From contig JAUHZC010000002.1 of the NCBI GenBank assembly GCA_030425805.1, positions 159,020 through 223,019 of the forward strand: a stretch of 64,000 nucleotides of DNA, in the 5' to 3' direction. Source of the stretch: Alphaproteobacteria bacterium (GTDB lineage: Bacteria; Pseudomonadota; Alphaproteobacteria; JAUHZC01). The translations under genes and the position numbers were made by a program. The notes beneath the pieces are model-generated. The model did not search any database. It saw nothing but the letters and a program-made list of their open reading frames with translations, and was not told the origin of the DNA. Shown one piece after another: positions 7,007 to 52,578 of this stretch. Position 1 is the stretch's first letter. Each line of letters begins with the position of its first letter.

Positions 7007-8305
7007 GTGCGACTAAACCTCCTTCTTTTTCTCTTTTCCCTTATATTTGTGACGGAAAACACATGGGCCCATAAATCAAAACCAAAGCCCAAGCCAGAGA
7101 CTTCCGGGCTCAAGCATGAAGACTACTTTACAGGCGCCAAAGAAGATCCTGACCTTCTTGCGCGCATCAAAGAGGCTATGGCTTTATTTAACCGGGAAGA
7201 ACCCCGGAATTTCTACCAGAAGCTTCAGGCAGACCGTGATCTTCGGGATGACTTCTTTGCGGGAAAGCTTTCTCCAGCATCCCTCAGACTAAATGATGAT
7301 GAGTTTACTCTTCTCCAAATCCTCGCAATTCAAAACCCCCGTATTTATGATGCAACATCTCATCCGGCCTTCCCTTTTGAAATTGACTTGAATGTATTCA
7401 ATCGGGAAATGATGGAGACTTTGGTTGACTTGCGCTTGCTCCCAAAAAAGGGACTCACTTATCTGATGACACCAAAGACGTTCGACCCTTTTGTTACATA
7501 CTTTGGGGGGAAGAAAGGAAAGCCGCCCCTCTCCCTTCACCTCATTGGGTTTGAGCAGGGCGTCCTTGTCCGAGCAACAACACTTCCCATGCTGCTCGAA
7601 AAATTCCAAGAACATGCTGAGGGGCTGCATCTGAAAGTAGAAGACGAACCCATCAGCCCCCCAAAAACCATTGCTGCTGTTCTTAAAACCTTGCAGCGGG
7701 GATTTGAAAAGAGGCATTTTACAAAACTTAAAACGCTCCACCTGACCTTTCCATTCAAAACTCAGGCAACAACACCCAAACTCCGTCTCTCCCATGAAGG
7801 AGCTTTAGTGGCAGCCCTTGTGATTCAGCTCTTGCGACAGATTAAGAGCATGGAGGATGTTTCTCTCTTCTTCCAGTTTGTGAATGATAAAGATATGACA
7901 CATGGTCAGCCCATTTGGTTTAAGCTTGAAAAATTCACTGTCTCTCCAGATCAGTATCTAGATCAAAAAGAAGTTGAGAAGCTAAAGCTCAAAGAAGACC
8001 CTATGCCGGCGCTTTACCATTACCGCCTTGCAAGCCCCATGGGATACATCGAGACAGAGAGTTTGAAAAAATTCCGCAGAAAAGCAGAAGGAACTATTCG
8101 TATGCTTGATGGAAAATCTTGGGCCTTTAAGCACCGCCGGGACCGTAAGCGTTCTCAAAAGAAAGCAAAGAAAAAAGAGAAACCTCTATCAAAAAAAGAA
8201 GTTTCAAAGCGCCCTGTCGCAACGGAAAAACCACAGAAGAAAATGCTTGATGAGGCCGAAGATCCCGGCGTCTTCATAGAACCCTATGAAGAGCCGGTGG
8301 AATAA
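7007..8305 (+). CDS. hypothetical secreted protein with Lys-rich basic C-terminal tail
   Basis: 432 aa. Apparent GTG start at 7007. Signal peptide MRLNLLLFLFSLIFVTENTWA. The C-terminal 70 aa are KRSQKKAKKKEKPLSKKE... Confidence 0.5.
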   Translation: MRLNLLLFLFSLIFVTENTWAHKSKPKPKPETSGLKHEDYFTGAKEDPDLLARIKEAMALFNREEPRNFYQKLQADRDLRDDFFAGKLSPASLRLNDDEFTLLQILAIQNPRIYDATSHPAFPFEIDLNVFNREMMETLVDLRLLPKKGLTYLMTPKTFDPFVTYFGGKKGKPPLSLHLIGFEQGVLVRATTLPMLLEKFQEHAEGLHLKVEDEPISPPKTIAAVLKTLQRGFEKRHFTKLKTLHLTFPFKTQATTPKLRLSHEGALVAALVIQLLRQIKSMEDVSLFFQFVNDKDMTHGQPIWFKLEKFTVSPDQYLDQKEVEKLKLKEDPMPALYHYRLASPMGYIETESLKKFRRKAEGTIRMLDGKSWAFKHRRDRKRSQKKAKKKEKPLSKKEVSKRPVATEKPQKKMLDEAEDPGVFIEPYEEPVE

Positions 8306-20997: not shown

Positions 20998-21849
20998 TTA
21001 TCCTCTCGCGGCTGCTTTGGCTTTGAGGACCATCTCTTTCCAGAAAGCTGTGAAGGCCTCTGGCGTTGTTTTTTCCATATGGGCATTAGCACCGGTGTAA
21101 TGGATTCCAACAAATGTCACACCTTCAACATTTTCAAAGGCTTCTTGGGCAGAAGCGAGGTATTTCTCATTGTCATCAATGAGAACAATGACCTTTGGCT
21201 TTTGGCGCATGTGATCTACGAGAGCTTTTAAAGCACTTCCCTTTGTCACAGCACAGCCCTTCGTGTCCGCATTGCAGAACAAAATCCCATGTTTAAAAAC
21301 AGGAGAACGTTTCAGTGTTGAAACAAGCTCTGTCAGCACAATCCGACGCCGTCCAAGGGAAGATTGATCTTTAAAAGAAATCCCTTGGGCCTGCAGTTCA
21401 TCCCGACGATGATCTTCGATGGAGAGAATGTTCCCAACCTTCCCTGGCATTGTTCCCGTCACCGCCATGGTTTGAAATCCACGTTCTTGGAGGGCTTTCA
21501 CTTGTTTTGGTATGCTACCCTCGACAAGTTTGCTCTTCCCTTGCTTGGTGGATAAAACCTTGGCGAGAAAGCGAATTTCTTTGGGCTGGGGTTTGAGAAT
21601 TTTGTAAACAGTCTTCCGATGGGCCTTCAGATTATTCGGATAAACATTGATGTTTCCTGGCATTGTAAGCGTAAAGTCAACATCGAAACAAACCAGAATA
21701 TCCTGGGGATTGTGTCCTTTTGCTGCGACCTCAACAGCCGCTATAGCATCTGCCATTGTTGCGTAATGGGTATGAGTGCATTCTGCAGCGCTTGGGTCCG
21801 ACTGCAGCGCCATAAGCAATAAGGCCACAGTACTATATAATTTTTTCAT
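20998..21849 (-). CDS. secreted HAD-superfamily-like hydrolase
   Basis: 283 aa. Signal peptide MKKLYSTVALLLMALQSDPSAA. HAD motif I FDVDFTLT (DxDxT) and motif IV LIDDN. Its start overlaps the stop of the upstream MerR gene by 17 bp. Confidence 0.6.
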   Translation of the reverse strand: MKKLYSTVALLLMALQSDPSAAECTHTHYATMADAIAAVEVAAKGHNPQDILVCFDVDFTLTMPGNINVYPNNLKAHRKTVYKILKPQPKEIRFLAKVLSTKQGKSKLVEGSIPKQVKALQERGFQTMAVTGTMPGKVGNILSIEDHRRDELQAQGISFKDQSSLGRRRIVLTELVSTLKRSPVFKHGILFCNADTKGCAVTKGSALKALVDHMRQKPKVIVLIDDNEKYLASAQEAFENVEGVTFVGIHYTGANAHMEKTTPEAFTAFWKEMVLKAKAAARG

Positions 21850-26325: not shown

Positions 26326-26426
26326 GCTCCCTATTATAGATGAGCTTTGGCTAAAGTGGCAATATATGCAAAACTTGATTTTAGGATCTACGATTCCTAT
26401 ATGGCTTAAAATTTATGGAAAATAGA

Positions 26427-26999
26427 ATGAAGAACCTTGCATTAACGCTTTTAATAATCACTGCTTTATCCGCAAAAGCCCATGCTGCTAATAATGCTCA
26501 AGATGCTGCAATACCTCTTTCTGGGCAGACGGATCTCAATGCTGCCCCCTCTCTTTTTGCCTATGCTGCCCTTCGCGAACCACAAGCTGATGGCCTTACC
26601 AGAGCAATAGCCTCTTTGAGAAATGGCACAACACGTGGTGGAGGTGCTCTACGTGGAAATGTCACCATTTCAGTATGCCCCACAGATGCAGAAGATGGTC
26701 GTGTTCTTTTCTCTTTAGTTCCTGACCGAGAACATGCACCAGATCCTTTTCCACTCTCCTGGCATGCGACGAATGTTGAAACAGAAATAGGCCAGCTTGC
26801 TGAAGCCTTGGCCGCCAATACAACAATCACACACTTTTACTTTGAGAATATGGGAGTCCCTGGCAATATAGCTGCCCTTCGTGAAGCTGCAGAAAACAAC
26901 TCGCATATTATTGAAAGCACATTCCCCCAAATGGCAGGAGAAGAGCTAGCTGCAGAGACAGCAACAGCAGGTGGCGGAGCCGCCGCCGTTGAAGATTAA
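26427..26999 (+). CDS. hypothetical secreted protein
   Basis: Signal peptide MKNLALTLLIITALSAKAHA. Ala/Gly-rich C-terminus. An alternative start lies 12 bp upstream at 26415. Confidence 0.5.
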   Translation: MKNLALTLLIITALSAKAHAANNAQDAAIPLSGQTDLNAAPSLFAYAALREPQADGLTRAIASLRNGTTRGGGALRGNVTISVCPTDAEDGRVLFSLVPDREHAPDPFPLSWHATNVETEIGQLAEALAANTTITHFYFENMGVPGNIAALREAAENNSHIIESTFPQMAGEELAAETATAGGGAAAVED

Positions 27000-29097: not shown

Positions 29098-32000
29098 TTG
29101 GGAAAGTACCGCATGGTCAAACAGAGCCCTCCTTTAAGCACAAAGCTGCTGCCCAGTTTTTATTCAAGCTTAAAAAACGAGAAAAACAGAATTCTCGTTG
29201 GGGACTTTGAAGCGACCTTCAGTGAGTTTGATTGCCTTGCAATTTTTCACCACATCAAAGAAAAGCCCCGAGAACAAACAGCTCAAATTCTTAACCTCTC
29301 CCCTAACAGTGTGGATACACACCTCAGAAACTTCAGAGCGGATAAAAATGGGTATCTCAAAATTCCAAATCTAGCCCGATACCTTAATAACTGTGATGAA
29401 GCCTCGCAAAATGCTTTACAACTTCATTATCGACGGTGGGAGGTGGAGGATGCTTTCCAGAAGGATTATCTCCAAAGCCTGAAGAGCAAGCACCTCCATC
29501 AACAAAAAGGCTTCTTGAGGGTAGACAGAGATATTGATCAAAGCCAGATCCCAATAAAGCAGTTTGAAAAGCACCTCAAACTCGCAGGTATTGATCTTAC
29601 TTTAGATGAAGACAAAGATGTGTCCTTTAGTTTTCACATCACCAAGGGGCAAGAGAATTATCTAAGCCCAGATGAGGCTCAAGAAGCATCCGGTATTGTC
29701 ATATTAATTGATGATCACATATCCAGGAATCATCATACATATGACCTCCCAAATCATGACGACTACTACATAGCATTGTTACGTATTTTACACACCCTTT
29801 ACCCCTCACAATTACCTGAAGAAAAAATTGAAGAGTTCAAAAAAAAGCAAGAAGCTCTTTTAAAGGGGTGTGTCAAAATCAAACAGAGAAAAATGTCTTC
29901 TCTAAAAAAAACACCCTCCCCTAAGCTCCTATACGTTCTTCTCGTTGCCACTGTGGCGTTTTGGGTAACAAAGGCAAGCTATGATATTCTCTATAGCGTT
30001 CCAAAAGTTCATTCAGAGCTCTCCTCTTTGCCGGAAAACCATGCATTCTTAGATCGCAGAGAGCTTATTAAAAAAATTGAAGAAAAGTTTAATGATGGAG
30101 GTGACATAAAAGTCGTTGGCATTGTTGGCATCGGAGGCGCGGGTAAAACAACACTTGCTTATCATTACGCACGCCTCCAAGAAACGCCTGTCATCTGGGC
30201 CATTAATGCTGAGACAAAGGAAAGCTTACTCCTCTCGTTTCAAAATTTGGCAAATAATTTGGCGAACACACCGCTCTTACGGGAACAGCTTAGATCCATC
30301 TCTGAATTGGGAGATTATGATAAAGAAAAAAGACTTTTCATGTTTATCACAAGACTCCTTAAAAGGTATCCAAATTGGATTCTAATTTACGATAACGTAG
30401 AGGACTACACCCAACTAAAGAGATATTTCCCGCACAGCAGCAGAGTCTGGGGAAAGGGAAGCGTCATCATCACATCCCAGGACATGCATATTTCTAACAC
30501 AAGTTATATCAAGCCAGATAAAATAGTGATCGTAGAGGGACTTAAACCCCGTGAAAGCCTGAGTCTTTTTAAAAAGATTTTTTTTAACTCTCCTGACCAC
30601 CCGTTAAGCGAGCCCCAGAAGGAAGAAATCACTAATTTCTTAAAGAAGATACCTCCCCTGCCTCTCGATGTTTCTCTTGCTGCCTATTATCTTAAAGAGA
30701 CTGGAATTTCCTTTAATTCATATTCACAGCACCTGAATAAAAAGCAGCTAGAATTTGAGAAAATGCAGAAGGAAGTTTTGGGAAATACGAGCTTTTATAA
30801 AGAGACTCGACTGAGCATTGCTGATTTAACATTTAAAAAAATTGTGCAAATCAATCAGGAATTCAAAGAGCTTTTATTTTTGGTAGGATTGCTAGACTCC
30901 CAAAACATTCCTCGGAATTTCCTATACATGTATAAAGATAGCCTCATTGTTGACAATTTCATTTACCAACTTAAAAAGTACTCGCTTATCACGAACGAAT
31001 CACACGGAACCCCTTTGGGAACAACTTTTTCGATTCATCGATTCATGCATACAGTGATGTTTTCAAATACCAGGGAAAGCCTAGAACCTAGCAAGCAAAA
31101 AGCCATTCTAGAGAAAGCAGCCGCCATATTTGAAAACTATGCAAACTCACTGCTCGAAAAAATTGATTTATCAGAGATGAAATTTTTTATACCGCATTGC
31201 GACATGTTTCTTAAACATACACACCTTATCTCCCCAAGAAGAAGCGCCCGAATATATAGAGAATTAGGGGACATGTATTATTATTTGAGGGACGATCGTA
31301 AGGCAAAAAAACTTCTGGAAGAAAGCTTGAAAATCAACCGAGATGATAATCCTAATGATATAGACAGGGCACATGTGCTTGTCTTCTTAAGCCATATTGA
31401 TGTCGTACTTGGCAAAAACAAAAAGGCCCAGCTTTTGCTAAAAAAAGTAGAGAAGAAATACAAAGAAGTTTTGAAAAAAAACACACTCGAAGTTGGAAGA
31501 CTGCTCGTTGCGATGGGGGAAATGTACGGATATTTAGGTAGATTTAAAAAAGCGAAGGAAGTTGTAGAAAGAGGATACAAGATCCATCAAAAATTCCATG
31601 ATCTCATAGGATTTGCAAGAACCATGGCCTATTTAGGAGTCTCTCTTGGTTGTTTAGGAGACTACGAAAAAGCCATACCGCTTATGGAAAAGAGTTTAGA
31701 AATTTACAAGAAGCATTACAAAAGTGACATAAACTATGCATGGCTATTGGTTCACCTTGGTGAATTTTATGGCAAAACGGGGAATTACAAAAAAGCCCTT
31801 CAGCTTATCAACCTTGGCACAAAATCATATAAAGACAATTTACCCCACCCTCATGCTGATATCGCTTGGGCTTTACTGTACCAAACAGGAGCTTATTTAA
31901 ACCTCAAAAACATTCCTAAAGCTCAAGAAGCGGCAGAAGAGGGAATGAAGGTACATAAGATGTTGTTTGATGAAAATAATGTCAGAATGGCTGAGGCAAA

Positions 32001-32403
32001 ATTAGAGCTTGCACGCGTTTATAAAGAAATCAGGAAGCTCGAGGAGGCGGAAAATTTACTCCATTCCGTACTTGAGAAATTCCAAGATAGTTTTGGTAAA
32101 AACAATTTGTGGACAGCCTCTGCACACTTTCACTTAGCAGAGGTTTACACTCTCAAAAGGAATTTTTCTGATGCTGAACCCCACTATGCAAAAGCCATTT
32201 CAATTTTGGAGGAATTCAAACATCCTGATTTAAAAATAGTCTTGCATAAGAAGAAAGACTTACGTTCCAGAATTACTCTTGAAGACTCAGAAAACAAACA
32301 AACTCCTCAAGGAAACTTTGGGGCGGTGATTAAAAAGATTTGGAATAAATTTAGTTCTTTTTTTCCAGACAAAACACGCGACAACGCGACTTCCCCCACA
32401 TGA
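29098..32403 (+). CDS. STAND NTPase: NB-ARC domain plus C-terminal TPR array, N-terminal LuxR-like HTH region and one hydrophobic segment
   Basis: 1101 aa. TTG at 29098 or ATG at 29113. NB-ARC motifs: P-loop GIVGIGGAGKTTLA, Walker B ILIYDNVED, RNBS-B-like GSVIITSQD, GLPL-like GLKPRESLSLFKK. At least 8 TPR-like repeats over residues about 700-1050. N-terminal TAQILNLSPNSVDTHLRNFRA resembles a LuxR/GerE HTH. Hydrophobic stretch LLYVLLVATVAFWVT. Confidence 0.8.
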   Translation: MGKYRMVKQSPPLSTKLLPSFYSSLKNEKNRILVGDFEATFSEFDCLAIFHHIKEKPREQTAQILNLSPNSVDTHLRNFRADKNGYLKIPNLARYLNNCDEASQNALQLHYRRWEVEDAFQKDYLQSLKSKHLHQQKGFLRVDRDIDQSQIPIKQFEKHLKLAGIDLTLDEDKDVSFSFHITKGQENYLSPDEAQEASGIVILIDDHISRNHHTYDLPNHDDYYIALLRILHTLYPSQLPEEKIEEFKKKQEALLKGCVKIKQRKMSSLKKTPSPKLLYVLLVATVAFWVTKASYDILYSVPKVHSELSSLPENHAFLDRRELIKKIEEKFNDGGDIKVVGIVGIGGAGKTTLAYHYARLQETPVIWAINAETKESLLLSFQNLANNLANTPLLREQLRSISELGDYDKEKRLFMFITRLLKRYPNWILIYDNVEDYTQLKRYFPHSSRVWGKGSVIITSQDMHISNTSYIKPDKIVIVEGLKPRESLSLFKKIFFNSPDHPLSEPQKEEITNFLKKIPPLPLDVSLAAYYLKETGISFNSYSQHLNKKQLEFEKMQKEVLGNTSFYKETRLSIADLTFKKIVQINQEFKELLFLVGLLDSQNIPRNFLYMYKDSLIVDNFIYQLKKYSLITNESHGTPLGTTFSIHRFMHTVMFSNTRESLEPSKQKAILEKAAAIFENYANSLLEKIDLSEMKFFIPHCDMFLKHTHLISPRRSARIYRELGDMYYYLRDDRKAKKLLEESLKINRDDNPNDIDRAHVLVFLSHIDVVLGKNKKAQLLLKKVEKKYKEVLKKNTLEVGRLLVAMGEMYGYLGRFKKAKEVVERGYKIHQKFHDLIGFARTMAYLGVSLGCLGDYEKAIPLMEKSLEIYKKHYKSDINYAWLLVHLGEFYGKTGNYKKALQLINLGTKSYKDNLPHPHADIAWALLYQTGAYLNLKNIPKAQEAAEEGMKVHKMLFDENNVRMAEAKLELARVYKEIRKLEEAENLLHSVLEKFQDSFGKNNLWTASAHFHLAEVYTLKRNFSDAEPHYAKAISILEEFKHPDLKIVLHKKKDLRSRITLEDSENKQTPQGNFGAVIKKIWNKFSSFFPDKTRDNATSPT

Positions 32404-48476: not shown

Positions 48477-49126
48477 GAGGGTTCCTCCTCCAACTCGACA
48501 GGTGGGGTTGCTTTCTCATCCCCCGGCAACACAATAGGCTCCCTGTTCATTCCTTCCCAGGGACTCAGATTGTCAAAGTGACGATAAGCCTGAGGCAGAT
48601 TCACATCCTCGTACACAACTTGCTTTTGAACCTCATCATAACGAGGTTCAATATACCCACTGAGGGGGAAATCTTTCCGCAAAGGATGGCCTTCAAATTC
48701 GTAATCTGTCAAAAGACGATCCAAGTTGGGGTGCCCCTCAAAAGAAATCCCAAAAAGGTCATGAGTCTCTCGCTCATACCAATTTGCACAGCTGAAAACC
48801 TCAATAACAGAGGGAACAGATACGCCTTCTTCTGTAGAAACGATAATGCGCACCCGCTGATTCAGCCGATGAGAGAGGAGATGATAGACCACATCAAAAC
48901 GAGGAATGCGGCCAAGGTGATCCACGCCACAAAGATCAATGAGCTGTTTGAATTGAAAAGCCGGATGATCCCGCAACATGCGCAGGACCCGCAAAATGTC
49001 TCCTGCCATACAAGATACTGTTACCTCCCCAAAAGGAGAAATTTCTACTTGCTCTTCAGACACTCCTAATTGCTGGAGAAAGTCTTGTTTAAGCTGTTCG
49101 AGAGGAGCGTGTTGATCTGCCATCAT
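48473..49126 (-). CDS. nuoC: NADH-quinone oxidoreductase subunit C
   Basis: 217 aa. 30-kDa subunit. Confidence 0.9.
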
Positions 49127-49692
49127 GCCCTCTCAATCACTGTGTTTGAAGCCTGACGACGGATTTTTTCTTGAAGCTGCAAAATTCCATATAAGAGTGC
49201 TTCTGCTGTTGGGGGGCACCCAGGCACGTAGATATCGACAGGCACAATCTGATCACAGCCCCGGGTGACAGAGTAAGCATAGTGATAATACCCGCCTCCA
49301 TTGGCACAAGATCCCATGGAGATCACCCAGCGGGGCTCAGGCATTTGATCATAAACTTTTCTTAATGCAGGTGCCATTTTGTTGGTTAGTGTTCCTGCCA
49401 CAATCATCACATCTGATTGACGGGGACTGGCCCGATAAATCGCCCCATAGCGATCAAGATCATACCGACTTGCAGCTGTTTGCATCATCTCCACAGCACA
49501 ACAAGCCAGACCAAAAGTCATAGGCCAAAGAGAGTTCGACTGTGCCCATCCCACAAGCTTGTCAGCTTGGGTCACAATGAACCCCTTTTCAGAAACTTGC
49601 TGGGCCAAGTGCTGCAGCTCCTGGGTTTCTGTCTTTTCCATAGATCCTGCCTTTAGATGAGGTTCCTCTGATGAAGCGCCTTTTACTCCCAT
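49123..49692 (-). CDS. nuoB: NADH-quinone oxidoreductase subunit B
   Basis: CCAVEM and GSCANGGG Fe-S motifs. Start chosen at the MGVKG Met. The longer ORF to 49713 is possible. Confidence 0.92.
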
Positions 49693-50060
49693 TCCAAGGC
49701 TCCTTTCATCCATTCATACACAAAAGCAACTGTTAAAACTCCAAGAAAAACGATCATGGACCAAAAGCTATAGATCCCAATTTCCTTTAAATTTTTGGCC
49801 CATGGAAACAGAAAAGCAACTTCAATATCAAAAATAATAAAGAGGATTGCGACAAGGTAAAAGCGCACATCAAACTTTACCCGGGTATCACTAAACTCCT
49901 TAAAGCCACATTCGTAAGGTGCATTTTTCTCTGGATCAGGCCGGCTTTTCCCCCGCAAAAGAGACAAAACCAAGAGCACAAGAGACATAGTTAACCCCAT
50001 AGCCAAAAAGGCAACAATGGGTAAATAGCTTTGGAGATCGAGATGATTCACAATTGCCAC
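49683..50060 (-). CDS. nuoA: NADH-quinone oxidoreductase subunit A
   Basis: 125 aa. 3 TM helices. First gene of the nuo operon. Confidence 0.88.
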
Positions 50061-50184
50061 AAATTTTATAATTTATCTTAAGGGGAAAACGCCCTTCTTT
50101 CAAGGGGGAGTTTGACGTCCCTACAGATAGAGATCCAGGGGAAGAGTCATCACAAAAGTTGGAGACTTTAGCCCTCTATGTGCG

Positions 50185-50245
50185 GACTGCCGCGTCGCTT
50201 CGTTCCTCGCAGTGACTTCATACTGTCATCGCGAAAGTCTGTGAC
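50185..50245. repeat. dispersed intergenic repeat (same family as 20914-20990)
   Basis: Reverse complement: TTCGCGATGACAGTATGAAGTCACTGCGAGGAACGAAGCGACGCGGCAGTCC. The other copy is CTCGCGATGACTGTAAGGAGGTCATTGCGAGGAGCGGAGCATTGCTGCAATCC at 20930-20985. Confidence 0.5.
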
Positions 50246-50278
50246 GTAACTTTATTTTTAAGTAATGATAGAATGAAA

Positions 50279-50355
50279 TGGCGGGAGTGACGGGACTTGA
50301 ACCCGCGACCTCTGGCGTGACAGGCCAGCGCTCTAACCAACTGAGCTACACCCCC
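50279..50355 (-). tRNA. tRNA-Asp (anticodon GTC)
   Basis: Reverse complement is GGGGGTGTAGCTCAGTTGGTTAGAGCGCTGGCCTGTCACGCCAGAGGTCGCGGGTTCAAGTCCCGTCACTCCCGCCA. Cloverleaf folds with anticodon loop CUGUCAC. Encoded CCA. Close to E. coli tRNA-Asp. Confidence 0.9.
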
Positions 50356-50549
50356 TGGATGAAGTGATAATTATCCGTTTCCAGGGCTGCTGTCAATGGA
50401 AAAACGACTCTACATCGGTTCAAATACTTGCTTCAACATGATTTTTGAAAAAATTTACCAAAATTTTAGATTAATGGTTCAGAATAAATATATCTGGAGA
50501 TCTATTACTCGAATATTTGGTCTCAATTATTATTTTTGACGAGGAGTCT

Positions 50550-52493
50550 ATGAACGCAACTGCAAGACAACTCAAGACAATTTTTTTGATTGCCCTAGCA
50601 TATGTTATGTTAGGCGCTTCCCCTGCCCTTGCACAGAAAAGTGATGGCGGTGCACAGCTTGGACAAATCCTTGGTTCTGTTGCTGGAAAGCTCTTTGCTG
50701 GAGGCCAAAAGAAAACGCAGCAGCCTGCACAAGTGCAGCAGCAAACACAACCAGCTCAAGCACAAATGCCGCAAAGCCAAAGCTATGCTCAGCAAGCCCC
50801 TGTTATCCAGCCGCAAGCAACCGGAGGATACCAGCAACAAGATATGGGCCAATATCAACAACAGGGGTATCAACAGGGCTATCAGCAAAATTACCAACAA
50901 GGTTATCAATCAAGCTACCCTCAACAATACGCTCAACAAGGTGCTGCTTCATATCAACAGCAATATGATACCACAGCACAGCAACCCCAGGCTGCCTCCG
51001 TTGTACGGTTTGATCCGACAACAGGAAAGCCTCTCACAGGGCTGCCTAAATTTGATCCTGTAACTGGAAAGCCTATGATGCCTAAGTTTGATCCCTTCAC
51101 AGGGCTTCCCATTTCGGAAGAGCAAGCCGGCACTCTTTTTCCTGACTTTGCCAAGCGTCCTGAGATGACATCCTCTTCTGACGAAGATGAAGAAAAGGGC
51201 AAGGATGAAGACACTAAAGAAGAAAAAGATGAAAAAAAATCCGATGAAAAAACTTCAGAGGAAACTGAAGACAAGGCTAAGCCAGACGATGCCGACAAAA
51301 AGGGTGACGCCAATAAAAAAGACAACACTGATAAAGCAGAAACCCAAGATGAAGAGCAAAGCAAAAAAGATGATAACGGTGATGTAAAAGATGCTAAAAA
51401 GAAAGAAGAGCCTGCAAAAGAAGAAACGGCAAAAGAGGAAGCTGTAAAAGCAGAACCTGCTGAAAAAACCGAGAAGGATGAAGCTGCCCCCCAAGAGAAG
51501 CGGGAAGATAGAAAACGCCGTGATGCTCGGGAACGTCCACCCCTTGACCGTGACTATGGATATGATGATCGTCGTCCTGCCCCACGAGACCGATACTATG
51601 ATGACCGCCGTGATCCACTCCCTCCAAGAGACGATCGATACTACGATGATCGTCGCGATTCATACCCTCCTCGAGATGATCGATACTACGATGACCGTCG
51701 TGAGCCCCTTCCTCCAAGAGACGACCAATACTATGATGATCCACGAGGATCCTTCCCACCACAAGATGACCGCTACTATGATGAGGGAAGGTATCCTGAA
51801 GATGATCCCTACTACCGTGATGCTCCGGAGCGCCAACGGCCAGGGGATGATCGGAATTGGTCAGCCTCGGACAGGCCAGACTATGAAGCCGCTCTAAAAT
51901 CTCAACGTGCACAAACTCTACAAGCTGCGACATTGCCCTCTGTGCAGGATCTTGGAAAAGTCCACAAAGGCAAGGTCCAGCTCATCGGAAATCAGATTCA
52001 GCTTCTCCAACATGATGTAAAAAGCTTTCATAAACAAAATCGAGCCCTGGCTCGCCAAAAGGCATTTGAGAGAAAAAAATGGAACCAGCTCCTTATCCGC
52101 ATTGAAAATGAGCTCACGGCTTTGCAGAATGACTCCCGTGAGTTTCTCTCTCGCCTTCCTTATGAATCGTCTAACTCCCTCTCCCAAAATCAAATCCGCA
52201 TCCCAAGAACTTTCCTCAGTGCCCCTGCACTTGAAATTCAAGATGGTACTTCTGAAATTGCACGCATTGAATTACGCAAAGAGTTAATTGATCACGAGCT
52301 TGATAAAATCATGACAATGAACGTGATCTTCGAAGATCAGCTCCAGAATAGTAATCTTGAAGCTGAACACCTGATTCAAATTAAGAATGAACTGAATGCC
52401 TTAAAAGCAAGAGAAGGTAAAATCAAAAAACTCCTCAATCAGATTCCTGATAAGGCGAAGCAAATATTGCTTCAAACCGCCAACCAAACTTAA
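50550..52493 (+). CDS. hypothetical secreted low-complexity protein: Gln/Tyr-rich prion-like region, FDPxTGxP repeats, acidic K/E/D block, five RDDRYYDDRR tandem repeats, C-terminal coiled coil
   Basis: Start at ATG 50550, preceded by GAGGAG. Signal peptide MNATARQLKTIFLIALAYVMLGASPALA. Repeats read directly from the translation. Confidence 0.6.
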   Translation: MNATARQLKTIFLIALAYVMLGASPALAQKSDGGAQLGQILGSVAGKLFAGGQKKTQQPAQVQQQTQPAQAQMPQSQSYAQQAPVIQPQATGGYQQQDMGQYQQQGYQQGYQQNYQQGYQSSYPQQYAQQGAASYQQQYDTTAQQPQAASVVRFDPTTGKPLTGLPKFDPVTGKPMMPKFDPFTGLPISEEQAGTLFPDFAKRPEMTSSSDEDEEKGKDEDTKEEKDEKKSDEKTSEETEDKAKPDDADKKGDANKKDNTDKAETQDEEQSKKDDNGDVKDAKKKEEPAKEETAKEEAVKAEPAEKTEKDEAAPQEKREDRKRRDARERPPLDRDYGYDDRRPAPRDRYYDDRRDPLPPRDDRYYDDRRDSYPPRDDRYYDDRREPLPPRDDQYYDDPRGSFPPQDDRYYDEGRYPEDDPYYRDAPERQRPGDDRNWSASDRPDYEAALKSQRAQTLQAATLPSVQDLGKVHKGKVQLIGNQIQLLQHDVKSFHKQNRALARQKAFERKKWNQLLIRIENELTALQNDSREFLSRLPYESSNSLSQNQIRIPRTFLSAPALEIQDGTSEIARIELRKELIDHELDKIMTMNVIFEDQLQNSNLEAEHLIQIKNELNALKAREGKIKKLLNQIPDKAKQILLQTANQT

Positions 52494-52578
52494 TTTCTCC
52501 CTTTAACTCCTTTTTAACCAAAACATATCTTTTTGTTAAAAAATTCCTCGTACATTATTTTCAGGAAGGATCACAACT

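Follow-up and report, generated by a model that had tools for sequence, protein, structure and literature searches.

What kind of protein is specified by a long alphaproteobacterial reading frame whose translation consists largely of low-complexity modules, and where would such a protein work? The question is posed by a gene of 647 codons (50550–52493, plus strand), whose product is referred to here as the target. It lies in 64,000 nucleotides of an Alphaproteobacteria bacterium genome (GenBank assembly GCA_030425805.1, contig JAUHZC010000002.1, positions 159,020 to 223,019); this whole stretch is called the window, and positions are numbered from its first letter. An earlier note, made from the letters alone, had described a secreted protein built from eukaryote-like low-complexity modules. 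Analysis of the gene and its product indicated that the target is an exported protein of unusual composition, two-thirds of which is low-complexity sequence predicted to be disordered, with a small helical bundle at its end. The modular architecture, in the order given by the note, was borne out by the translation. All structural models were AlphaFold2 (AF2) predictions from a single sequence and are to be read with caution accordingly.

Identification of the gene and export of its product

The frame is open on the plus strand from 50517 or 50550 to 52493, and the ATG at 50550 is likely the start codon, since GAGGAG is found just upstream and translation from that position gives a canonical signal peptide. 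The signal peptide read by rule, MNATARQLKTIFLIALAYVMLGASPALA, has a positively charged n-region (R6 and K9), an h-region of 13–14 residues (approximately I11 to A23) and the sequence A26-L27-A28 before Q29, with predicted cleavage before QKSD. The features by which export through Sec and signal peptidase I is recognized (a charged n-region, an h-region of 10–15 residues, small residues at −3 and −1 and no lipobox cysteine) were all present, and the only hydrophobic segment in the whole protein spans residues 8–29. This textbook N terminus implies that the protein leaves the cytoplasm; export across the inner membrane via Sec, followed by processing by signal peptidase I, is thus a well supported prediction. 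The mature protein would comprise 619 residues (about 71 kDa, acidic with a pI of 5.1). A lipoprotein reading was rejected for lack of a lipobox cysteine, the protein being free of Cys throughout.

The earlier note had named a frameshift or sequencing error in the repeat region as grounds for doubt. A Logan contig of 3666 nucleotides from an independent run (ERR3420974) was 100% identical to window positions 50327–53992, and both a frameshift and a misassembly of the repeat region are thereby excluded. When the five clean units described below were aligned by codon, in frame, pooled Nei–Gojobori counts gave proportions of synonymous and non-synonymous differences (pS and pN) of 0.72 and 0.22, respectively, a pN/pS ratio of 0.31. 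Such synonymous saturation, coupled with non-synonymous constraint, indicates that the array is old and that its peptide has been preserved by selection, rather than being a product of recent slippage. GC content at third codon positions was 0.37, within the range of window genes (0.33–0.52) and at a low end common to other orphans. Based on the identical independent read set, the repeat pS and pN values, the GC content and the agreement of the FDP motifs with a consensus from other proteins (see below), the gene is real and lineage-specific.

Modules of the mature protein

The positions of the modules are collected in Table 1. In the full-length AF2 model, about 390 residues (approximately 50–440) had predicted local distance difference test (pLDDT) values below 50, and this region is predicted to be disordered. 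It begins with a Gln/Tyr-rich block containing 39 Gln (39%), 11 Tyr and only four charged residues, with pLDDT values below 40. A classical criterion for Q/N-rich prion-like domains, that of Michelitsch and Weissman, is at least 30 Gln plus Asn within 80 consecutive residues. The maximum in the target is 35 per 80, at residues 61–140, so that the description of this region as prion-like is supported by this criterion of composition. The three FDP motifs follow, with FDPTTGKP, FDPVTGKP and FDPFTGLP beginning at residues 154, 168 and 180, respectively. After these comes a Lys/Glu/Asp-rich block (residues 201 to about 330; 22% Lys, 22% Glu and 16% Asp), which is about 65% charged and net negative, shows short 15-nucleotide periodicities by Tandem Repeats Finder (TRF) and has pLDDT values below 50. 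The block had been noted correctly, with a length of 150 residues that is closer to 130.

The last disordered module is the Arg/Asp/Tyr/Pro repeat array, in which five clean 15-residue units of the PPRDDRYYDDRRDPL type start at residues 343, 358, 373, 388 and 403 (residues 343–417; 51576–51800), flanked on each side by a degenerate 15-residue unit, at 328 and 418. TRF confirmed the periodicity, reporting a 45-nucleotide period at 51591–51739 (score 186) and a 90-nucleotide period at 51588–51784 (score 254). The five tandem copies counted previously were thus recovered, together with the two degenerate units. A likeness of these repeats to RNA-binding RD/RY motifs had also been proposed and could not be upheld. 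The block contains 23 Arg and 16 Tyr; residues 328–440 contain no RGG, RS or SR and a single RG, and no RNA-binding domain was detected in Pfam or NCBIfam searches, leaving a likeness of composition alone. An RNA-binding role is further weakened by Sec export, which would separate the protein from bacterial RNA.

A tandem FDPxTGxP mini-motif common to unrelated proteins

The three FDP copies of the target (RFDPTTGKPL, KFDPVTGKPM and KFDPFTGLPI) are spaced by 14 and 12 residues. When 1.36 Mb of alphaproteobacterial DNA was read in six frames, its open reading frames (ORFs) contained no FDPxTGxP, compared with three within 35 residues of the target, which exceeds what chance would give. Metagenomes were then searched at the DNA level, using a degenerate pattern in which two FDPxTG motifs lie 10–16 residues apart, and at least 120 stretches were returned; in the 80 metagenome loci examined (L083–L162), 90 of 95 matches were in frame. 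Among the matches listed, the carriers of paired motifs were unrelated, mostly bacterial proteins. They comprised SPFH/Band-7 proteins in which a Q-rich linker with four copies of FDPMTGQPI precedes a SHOCT tail, zinc-ribbon membrane proteins, short cytoplasmic tails preceding a transmembrane helix, small proteins with the motif immediately after a signal peptide, lipoprotein-like ORFs and one eukaryote-type C2-domain protein.

From 125 distinct instances among the matches listed, a consensus was obtained with Lys, Gly or Arg at −1, Glu, Lys or Gln at +6, Pro at +7 (48%) and Ile or Leu at +8 (69%). Spacing among these instances peaked at 12–15 residues, and the surroundings were linkers rich in Gln, Pro and Gly. 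The three copies in the target fit this consensus exactly, including at positions that were not imposed by the search. With the motif class defined as FDPxTGxP(I/L) in at least two copies 10–16 residues apart, with Lys or Arg at −1, Glu, Lys or Gln at +6, Pro at +7, Ile or Leu at +8 and a Q/P/G-rich setting, the target is a member. BLAST similarity between the target and the carrier ORFs was limited to residues 106–226, and such local similarity points to motif use in common rather than homology. In the AF2 model, β-bridges connect the Phe of each copy with the residue seven positions on (154/161, 168/175 and 180/187), and pLDDT is locally raised. Pfam scans of the target and of six carrier proteins placed no model on the motif, and no description of it was found in the literature searched. 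Judged from these sequences, FDPxTGxP(I/L) is a widespread, uncharacterized tandem mini-motif of Q-rich linkers, mostly in bacterial proteins. The triplet seen previously is present in full, and its classification as eukaryote-like is not retained, given its occurrence in unrelated, mostly bacterial proteins.

The motif resembles a known designed fold. Chignolin (GYDPETGTWG) is a designed hairpin peptide of the DPxTG type, and the (K/R)FDPxTGxP(L/I/M) sequence of the target has the same aromatic-DPxTG-x-x pattern as hairpins of the chignolin/GB1 type, together with the predicted β-bridge. In the natural motif, by contrast, positions +7 and +8 are Pro and an aliphatic residue, respectively, and the copies are arranged in tandem in Q-rich linkers.

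The C-terminal helical domain

For residues 441–647, AF2 gave a mean pLDDT of 73 and a predicted template modelling score of 0.57. One helix of about 70 residues (465–535) was predicted, onto which three shorter helices fold back, and the full-length model agreed with this arrangement. The C-terminal ~180 residues would accordingly form an intramolecular antiparallel helical bundle. Hydrophobic periodicity in helix 465–535 was strong at period 3.6 (p about 0.001), as expected of an amphipathic helix, compared with p about 0.07 at the heptad period of 3.5; over residues 465–646 as a whole, period 3.5 gave p about 0.02. The nearest structural neighbours returned by Foldseek were three-helix coiled-coil bundles (best E value 0.07, none at or below 0.001), a generic result. 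Of the coiled coil predicted for this region, the helical and amphipathic character agrees with the predictions, the heptad signal in the long helix proved modest, and the models favour an intramolecular bundle; the term would fit only if taken loosely, to mean a bundle of helices.

Two further readings of the target were considered and rejected. As an autotransporter (type V), the target would need a C-terminal β-barrel; the C-terminal 180 residues are predicted to be helical, which leaves no place for one, and no Pfam match was obtained. A periplasm-spanning protein of the TolA/TonB type was set aside because of the AxA cleavage site at the N terminus and the lack of a TolA_III or TonB_C match in Pfam.

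Search for relatives of the target and of its source organism

The second ground for doubt in the earlier note had been a common bacterial family to which the target might belong; no such family was found, and the rarity claimed for the protein was sustained in every collection searched. The full-length protein, searched against a word-indexed collection of 5.8 billion clusters, recovered only itself. The repeat array alone returned nothing from the same collection; neither did the FDP module alone, a weak negative as this query did not recover the target either. The C-terminal domain was searched by itself with exhaustive phmmer against 1.84 billion representatives, and no homologue beyond the target was seen; a 33-residue match to a filamentous-haemagglutinin-type repeat protein (P0002) was rejected as chance. 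Protein-guided scans found nothing similar in JGI metagenomes (241 million records), no match among viral contigs (IMG/VR), and no match in GTDB genomes, a collection in which the source species itself is absent or masked. Plasmids searched by tblastn and the sequences of the PDB gave no match, Pfam and NCBIfam gave no domain, and no paralogue was present in the window. A Pfam match to TrbC/VirB2 (E value 0.25, residues 2–47) covered the signal peptide alone and was rejected, as was a pilin reading of the target. Every module of the target thus appears to be an orphan.

The source organism is itself isolated. Its NuoC was a singleton at 90% identity, and the best matches to it in GTDB genomes ranged from 55 to 65% identity; the best NuoB and NuoD matches, at 73 and 76%, respectively, were in two alphaproteobacterial metagenome-assembled genomes (MAGs). 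Based on these values, the organism is a deep-branching alphaproteobacterium with an isolated genome. NuoB (49123–49713, minus strand) carries an N-terminal extension, with a counterpart at 9381–9980 of locus L039 and another in L009; over residues 1–187, identity was 70–73% to the MAG contigs JAGONT010000001 and JAIESK010000032, the nearest relatives found. In these nearest MAGs (L039 and L009), neither a counterpart of the target nor a tRNA, tRNA-Asp included, was found beside nuoA. In L039, signal-peptide orphans and TPR-like repeat proteins are located upstream of nuoA.

Proposed role of the target

We assign a probability of about 0.4 to a role of the target in the cell envelope, as a multivalent scaffold or matrix constituent situated in the periplasm or at a host-facing surface. 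In such a protein, the C-terminal helical bundle would dock or oligomerize the chain, many weak contacts, either mutual or with partner proteins, would come from the FDP hairpins and from Tyr and Arg residues as "stickers", and the Lys/Glu/Asp block would serve as a charged spacer. In the "molecular grammar" of FUS-family proteins, phase separation is driven mainly by Tyr–Arg contacts, and in the target the stickers are laid out as 11 Tyr in the nearly uncharged Q-rich block and 23 Arg with 16 Tyr in the repeat block. The protein would be retained in the envelope, in the periplasm or at the surface. Retention is preferred over release because no outer-membrane route could be recognized and because of the precedent of RARP-1.

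RARP-1 of Rickettsia parkeri was assumed to be a secreted effector and then shown to be periplasmic, where a role as periplasmic scaffold was proposed (bioRxiv 10.1101/2022.02.23.481736). Like the target, it is alphaproteobacterial and has the layout of a signal peptide, an intrinsically disordered region and a folded C-terminal domain. The two proteins differ in that the C-terminal domain of RARP-1 consists of ankyrin repeats and that of the target is an orphan helical bundle, for which Pfam gave no Ank match even at E values up to 10; there is no sequence similarity between them, and the succession of Gln/Tyr, FDP, Lys/Glu/Asp and Arg/Asp/Tyr blocks is peculiar to the target. Where the earlier note had called the protein secreted, the Sec/signal peptidase I signal upholds the first step; a step beyond the periplasm finds no autotransporter barrel to carry it, and RARP-1, of the same layout, is periplasmic.

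Several points weigh against an envelope scaffold. Conservation could be assessed only among the internal repeats, as there are no orthologues, and the predicted structures come from a single sequence. The view of secretion systems was confined to the 64-kb window. Different genera usually share their core envelope components, and total orphan status suits fast-evolving host-interaction proteins at least equally well.

This last point leads to the main alternative, possible but rather doubtful, of a host-delivered effector that is exported by Sec and then released by a type II system, by vesicles or by lysis, whereupon its disordered modules engage host machinery. Candidate targets would be ribonucleoprotein (RNP) granules or the nucleolus, through the Gln/Tyr and Arg/Asp/Tyr blocks, and kinase or SH3 signalling, through acidic-flanked YY and RRxPLPP. 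Effectors and surface antigens of intracellular alphaproteobacteria are typically orphans of acidic, repeat-rich composition, and two RRxPLPP strings in the target fit [RK]xxPxxP, but short-motif matches of this kind are expected by chance in low-complexity sequence. RGG, RS and SR are absent, no homology to RNA-binding or signalling proteins was found (Pfam, NCBIfam and PDB), and many bacterial proteins without a host link carry the FDP motif. The neighbourhood, described below, is rich in signal-peptide orphans with poly-Glu, poly-Asp and Ser/Ala runs, and contains a CaaX-like CTVC end and an NB-ARC/TPR protein; the set of exported orphans fits a host-associated lifestyle without proving one, and the intracellular-symbiont context suggested previously is no more than plausible. 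RARP-1, moreover, is an earlier failure of the same inference.

Known secreted proteins of host-associated alphaproteobacteria offer partial parallels to such an effector. The tandem repeat proteins (TRPs) of Ehrlichia are not known to carry a Sec signal and use type I secretion. The target resembles them in having acidic, disordered, species-specific, Tyr-containing tandem repeats in an alphaproteobacterial setting, and differs in its predicted cleavable signal peptide and Lys-rich helical C terminus. In the endosymbiont Holospora obtusa, the 63-kDa PRP1 and an 89-kDa invasion-tip protein reside in the periplasm until host contact, when they are exposed or released, and PRP1, which has a signal peptide, is released into the host nucleus (PMC9866348). 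Both Holospora proteins, like the target, are lineage-specific, signal peptide-bearing and alphaproteobacterial; no homology was detected and, in contrast to PRP1 with its D5_N DNA-binding domain, the target lacks any recognizable domain. Lineage-specific effectors are also described from Rickettsia, where they are termed Srf (PMC11258249).

Another reading, in which the target serves a free-living or loosely associated bacterium outside the cell, as an adhesive or matrix that forms a hydrogel or an amyloid-like coat, is unlikely. It would account for the signal peptide, the Q/N-rich block above 30 per 80, the lack of Cys, and the Tyr-rich and acidic composition. However, no signature of curli, chaplins or another amyloid family was found in Pfam, the Gln-rich block is poor in hydrophobic residues, no known outer-membrane route was identified, and nothing similar was detected in the 241 million metagenome records.

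The resemblance to FUS-family proteins can also be carried further, to an exported FUS-like protein that forms an extracytoplasmic condensate or gel, in the periplasm or at a symbiont–host interface, or that enters host RNP condensates after release, and that would be the founding example of the set of low-complexity orphans with signal peptides. The target does combine, on one chain, a nearly uncharged Gln/Gly/Ser/Tyr block with regular Tyr and an Arg/Tyr-rich block. It has no RRM, zinc finger, RGG or RS, its Arg residues lie in Asp/Arg/Tyr repeats with PP, and it is Sec-exported. The resemblance is compositional rather than homologous, and a condensate of this kind strikes us as distinctly improbable.

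A non-functional frame (a recent or decaying gene, an assembly artefact or the shadow of an opposite-strand gene) would suit the lack of homologues, the extreme composition bias and the overlapping antisense ORFs of up to 179 residues, but is very improbable in view of a 647-codon frame with a Shine–Dalgarno-like site and a perfect signal peptide, the identical sequence in an independent run, purifying selection among the repeat copies, FDP motifs that match the consensus of unrelated proteins and a C terminus confidently modelled as helical.

Should the envelope scaffold, or a condensate, prove correct, the target would be an extracytoplasmic bacterial protein built on the Tyr/Arg grammar of eukaryotic phase-separating proteins, and would open the way to a whole class of orphan exported proteins from an alphaproteobacterial lineage that is unstudied. 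Among the by-products of the analysis, the FDPxTGxP(I/L) motif class and the clustered orphans with signal peptides are the most useful.

Neighbourhood of the target and other orphans in the window

The target is divergent from the tRNA-Asp gene and the nuoA–N operon, and is followed by a DJ-1/PfpI gene. The 218 nucleotides that separate nuoA from the tRNA (50061–50278) contain no listed ORF of 60 or more residues.

Table 1. Coordinates of the target, its modules and neighbouring features in the window
Feature	Position	Strand	Basis or remark
Promoter-like site TTGAAA-16-TAGATT	50445–50472	+	~78 nt upstream of ATG; 9/12 consensus match alone, weak evidence
Shine–Dalgarno-like GAGGAG	50541–50546	+	3 nt before ATG; read from sequence
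Coding sequence, 647 residues plus stop	50550–52493	+	ORF list, translation
Sec-type signal peptide, residues 1–28	50550–50633	+	AxA rule, hydrophobicity; predicted cleavage ALA↓QK
Gly/Ala-rich amphipathic helix, residues 32–49, GGAQLGQILGSVAGKLFAGG	50643–50696	+	AF2 helix; amphipathic periodicity p about 0.02
Gln/Tyr-rich prion-like block, residues 55–153	50712–51008	+	translation; (G)YQQ repeats
Three (R/K)FDPxTGxP(L/M/I) motifs, residues 154–188	51009–51113	+	translation, AF2; predicted mini β-hairpins
Lys/Glu/Asp-rich polyampholyte block, residues 201–327	51150–51530	+	translation; about 130 residues
Arg/Asp/Tyr/Pro repeat array, residues 328–432	51531–51845	+	TRF, codon alignment
C-terminal helical domain, residues 465–646	51942–52487	+	AF2; helices 465–535, 566–599, 605–630, 634–646
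tRNA-Asp (GTC)	50279–50355	−	between nuoA and target
Signal-peptide orphans, first five	1253–2926 (−), 7007–8305 (+), 11186–13333 (+), 18472–20442 (+), 26415–26999 (+)		
Signal-peptide orphans, last four	50550–52493 (+), 53417–57028 (+), 57552–58277 (−), 62046–63947 (+)		first of these is the target

All nine Pfam-less ORFs of at least 180 residues in the window begin with a predicted Sec-type signal peptide, which places the target in a set of lineage-specific exported proteins. Most of the nine carry low-complexity runs, a Gly/Lys/Arg tract among them; their low-complexity content ranges from 12 to 68%, and the genes form a dense set interspersed with housekeeping genes. The orphan at 53417–57028 (plus strand), of 1203 residues, has near-duplicate blocks of a Ser run, AGQA and an Ala run near both ends. 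Its C terminus is KGCGMQGAVKCCTVC, and the last four residues, CTVC, resemble a CaaX prenylation box, an ending that would be sensible only if the protein reaches the eukaryotic cytosol. The orphan at 62046–63947 (plus strand) contains runs of 13 Glu and nine Asp along with Arg-rich tracts, and that at 18472–20442 (plus strand) contains GKGKGRGRGKKKGKGRKG with Ala, Asp and Glu runs; the basic tracts of these two look like nuclear-localization signals.

Three further genes of the window have recognizable domains. A protein of 1101 residues (29098–32403, plus strand) has an NB-ARC domain (E value 2.9e-15) followed by many TPR repeats, an architecture of the STAND-type NTPases. The gene at 8400–11108 (plus strand) joins HisKA and HATPase_c to a sodium:solute symporter (SSF) domain, as in a transporter-like sensor histidine kinase, and a DUF2608-family protein (E value 1.8e-25) with a signal peptide is encoded at 20998–21849 (minus strand).

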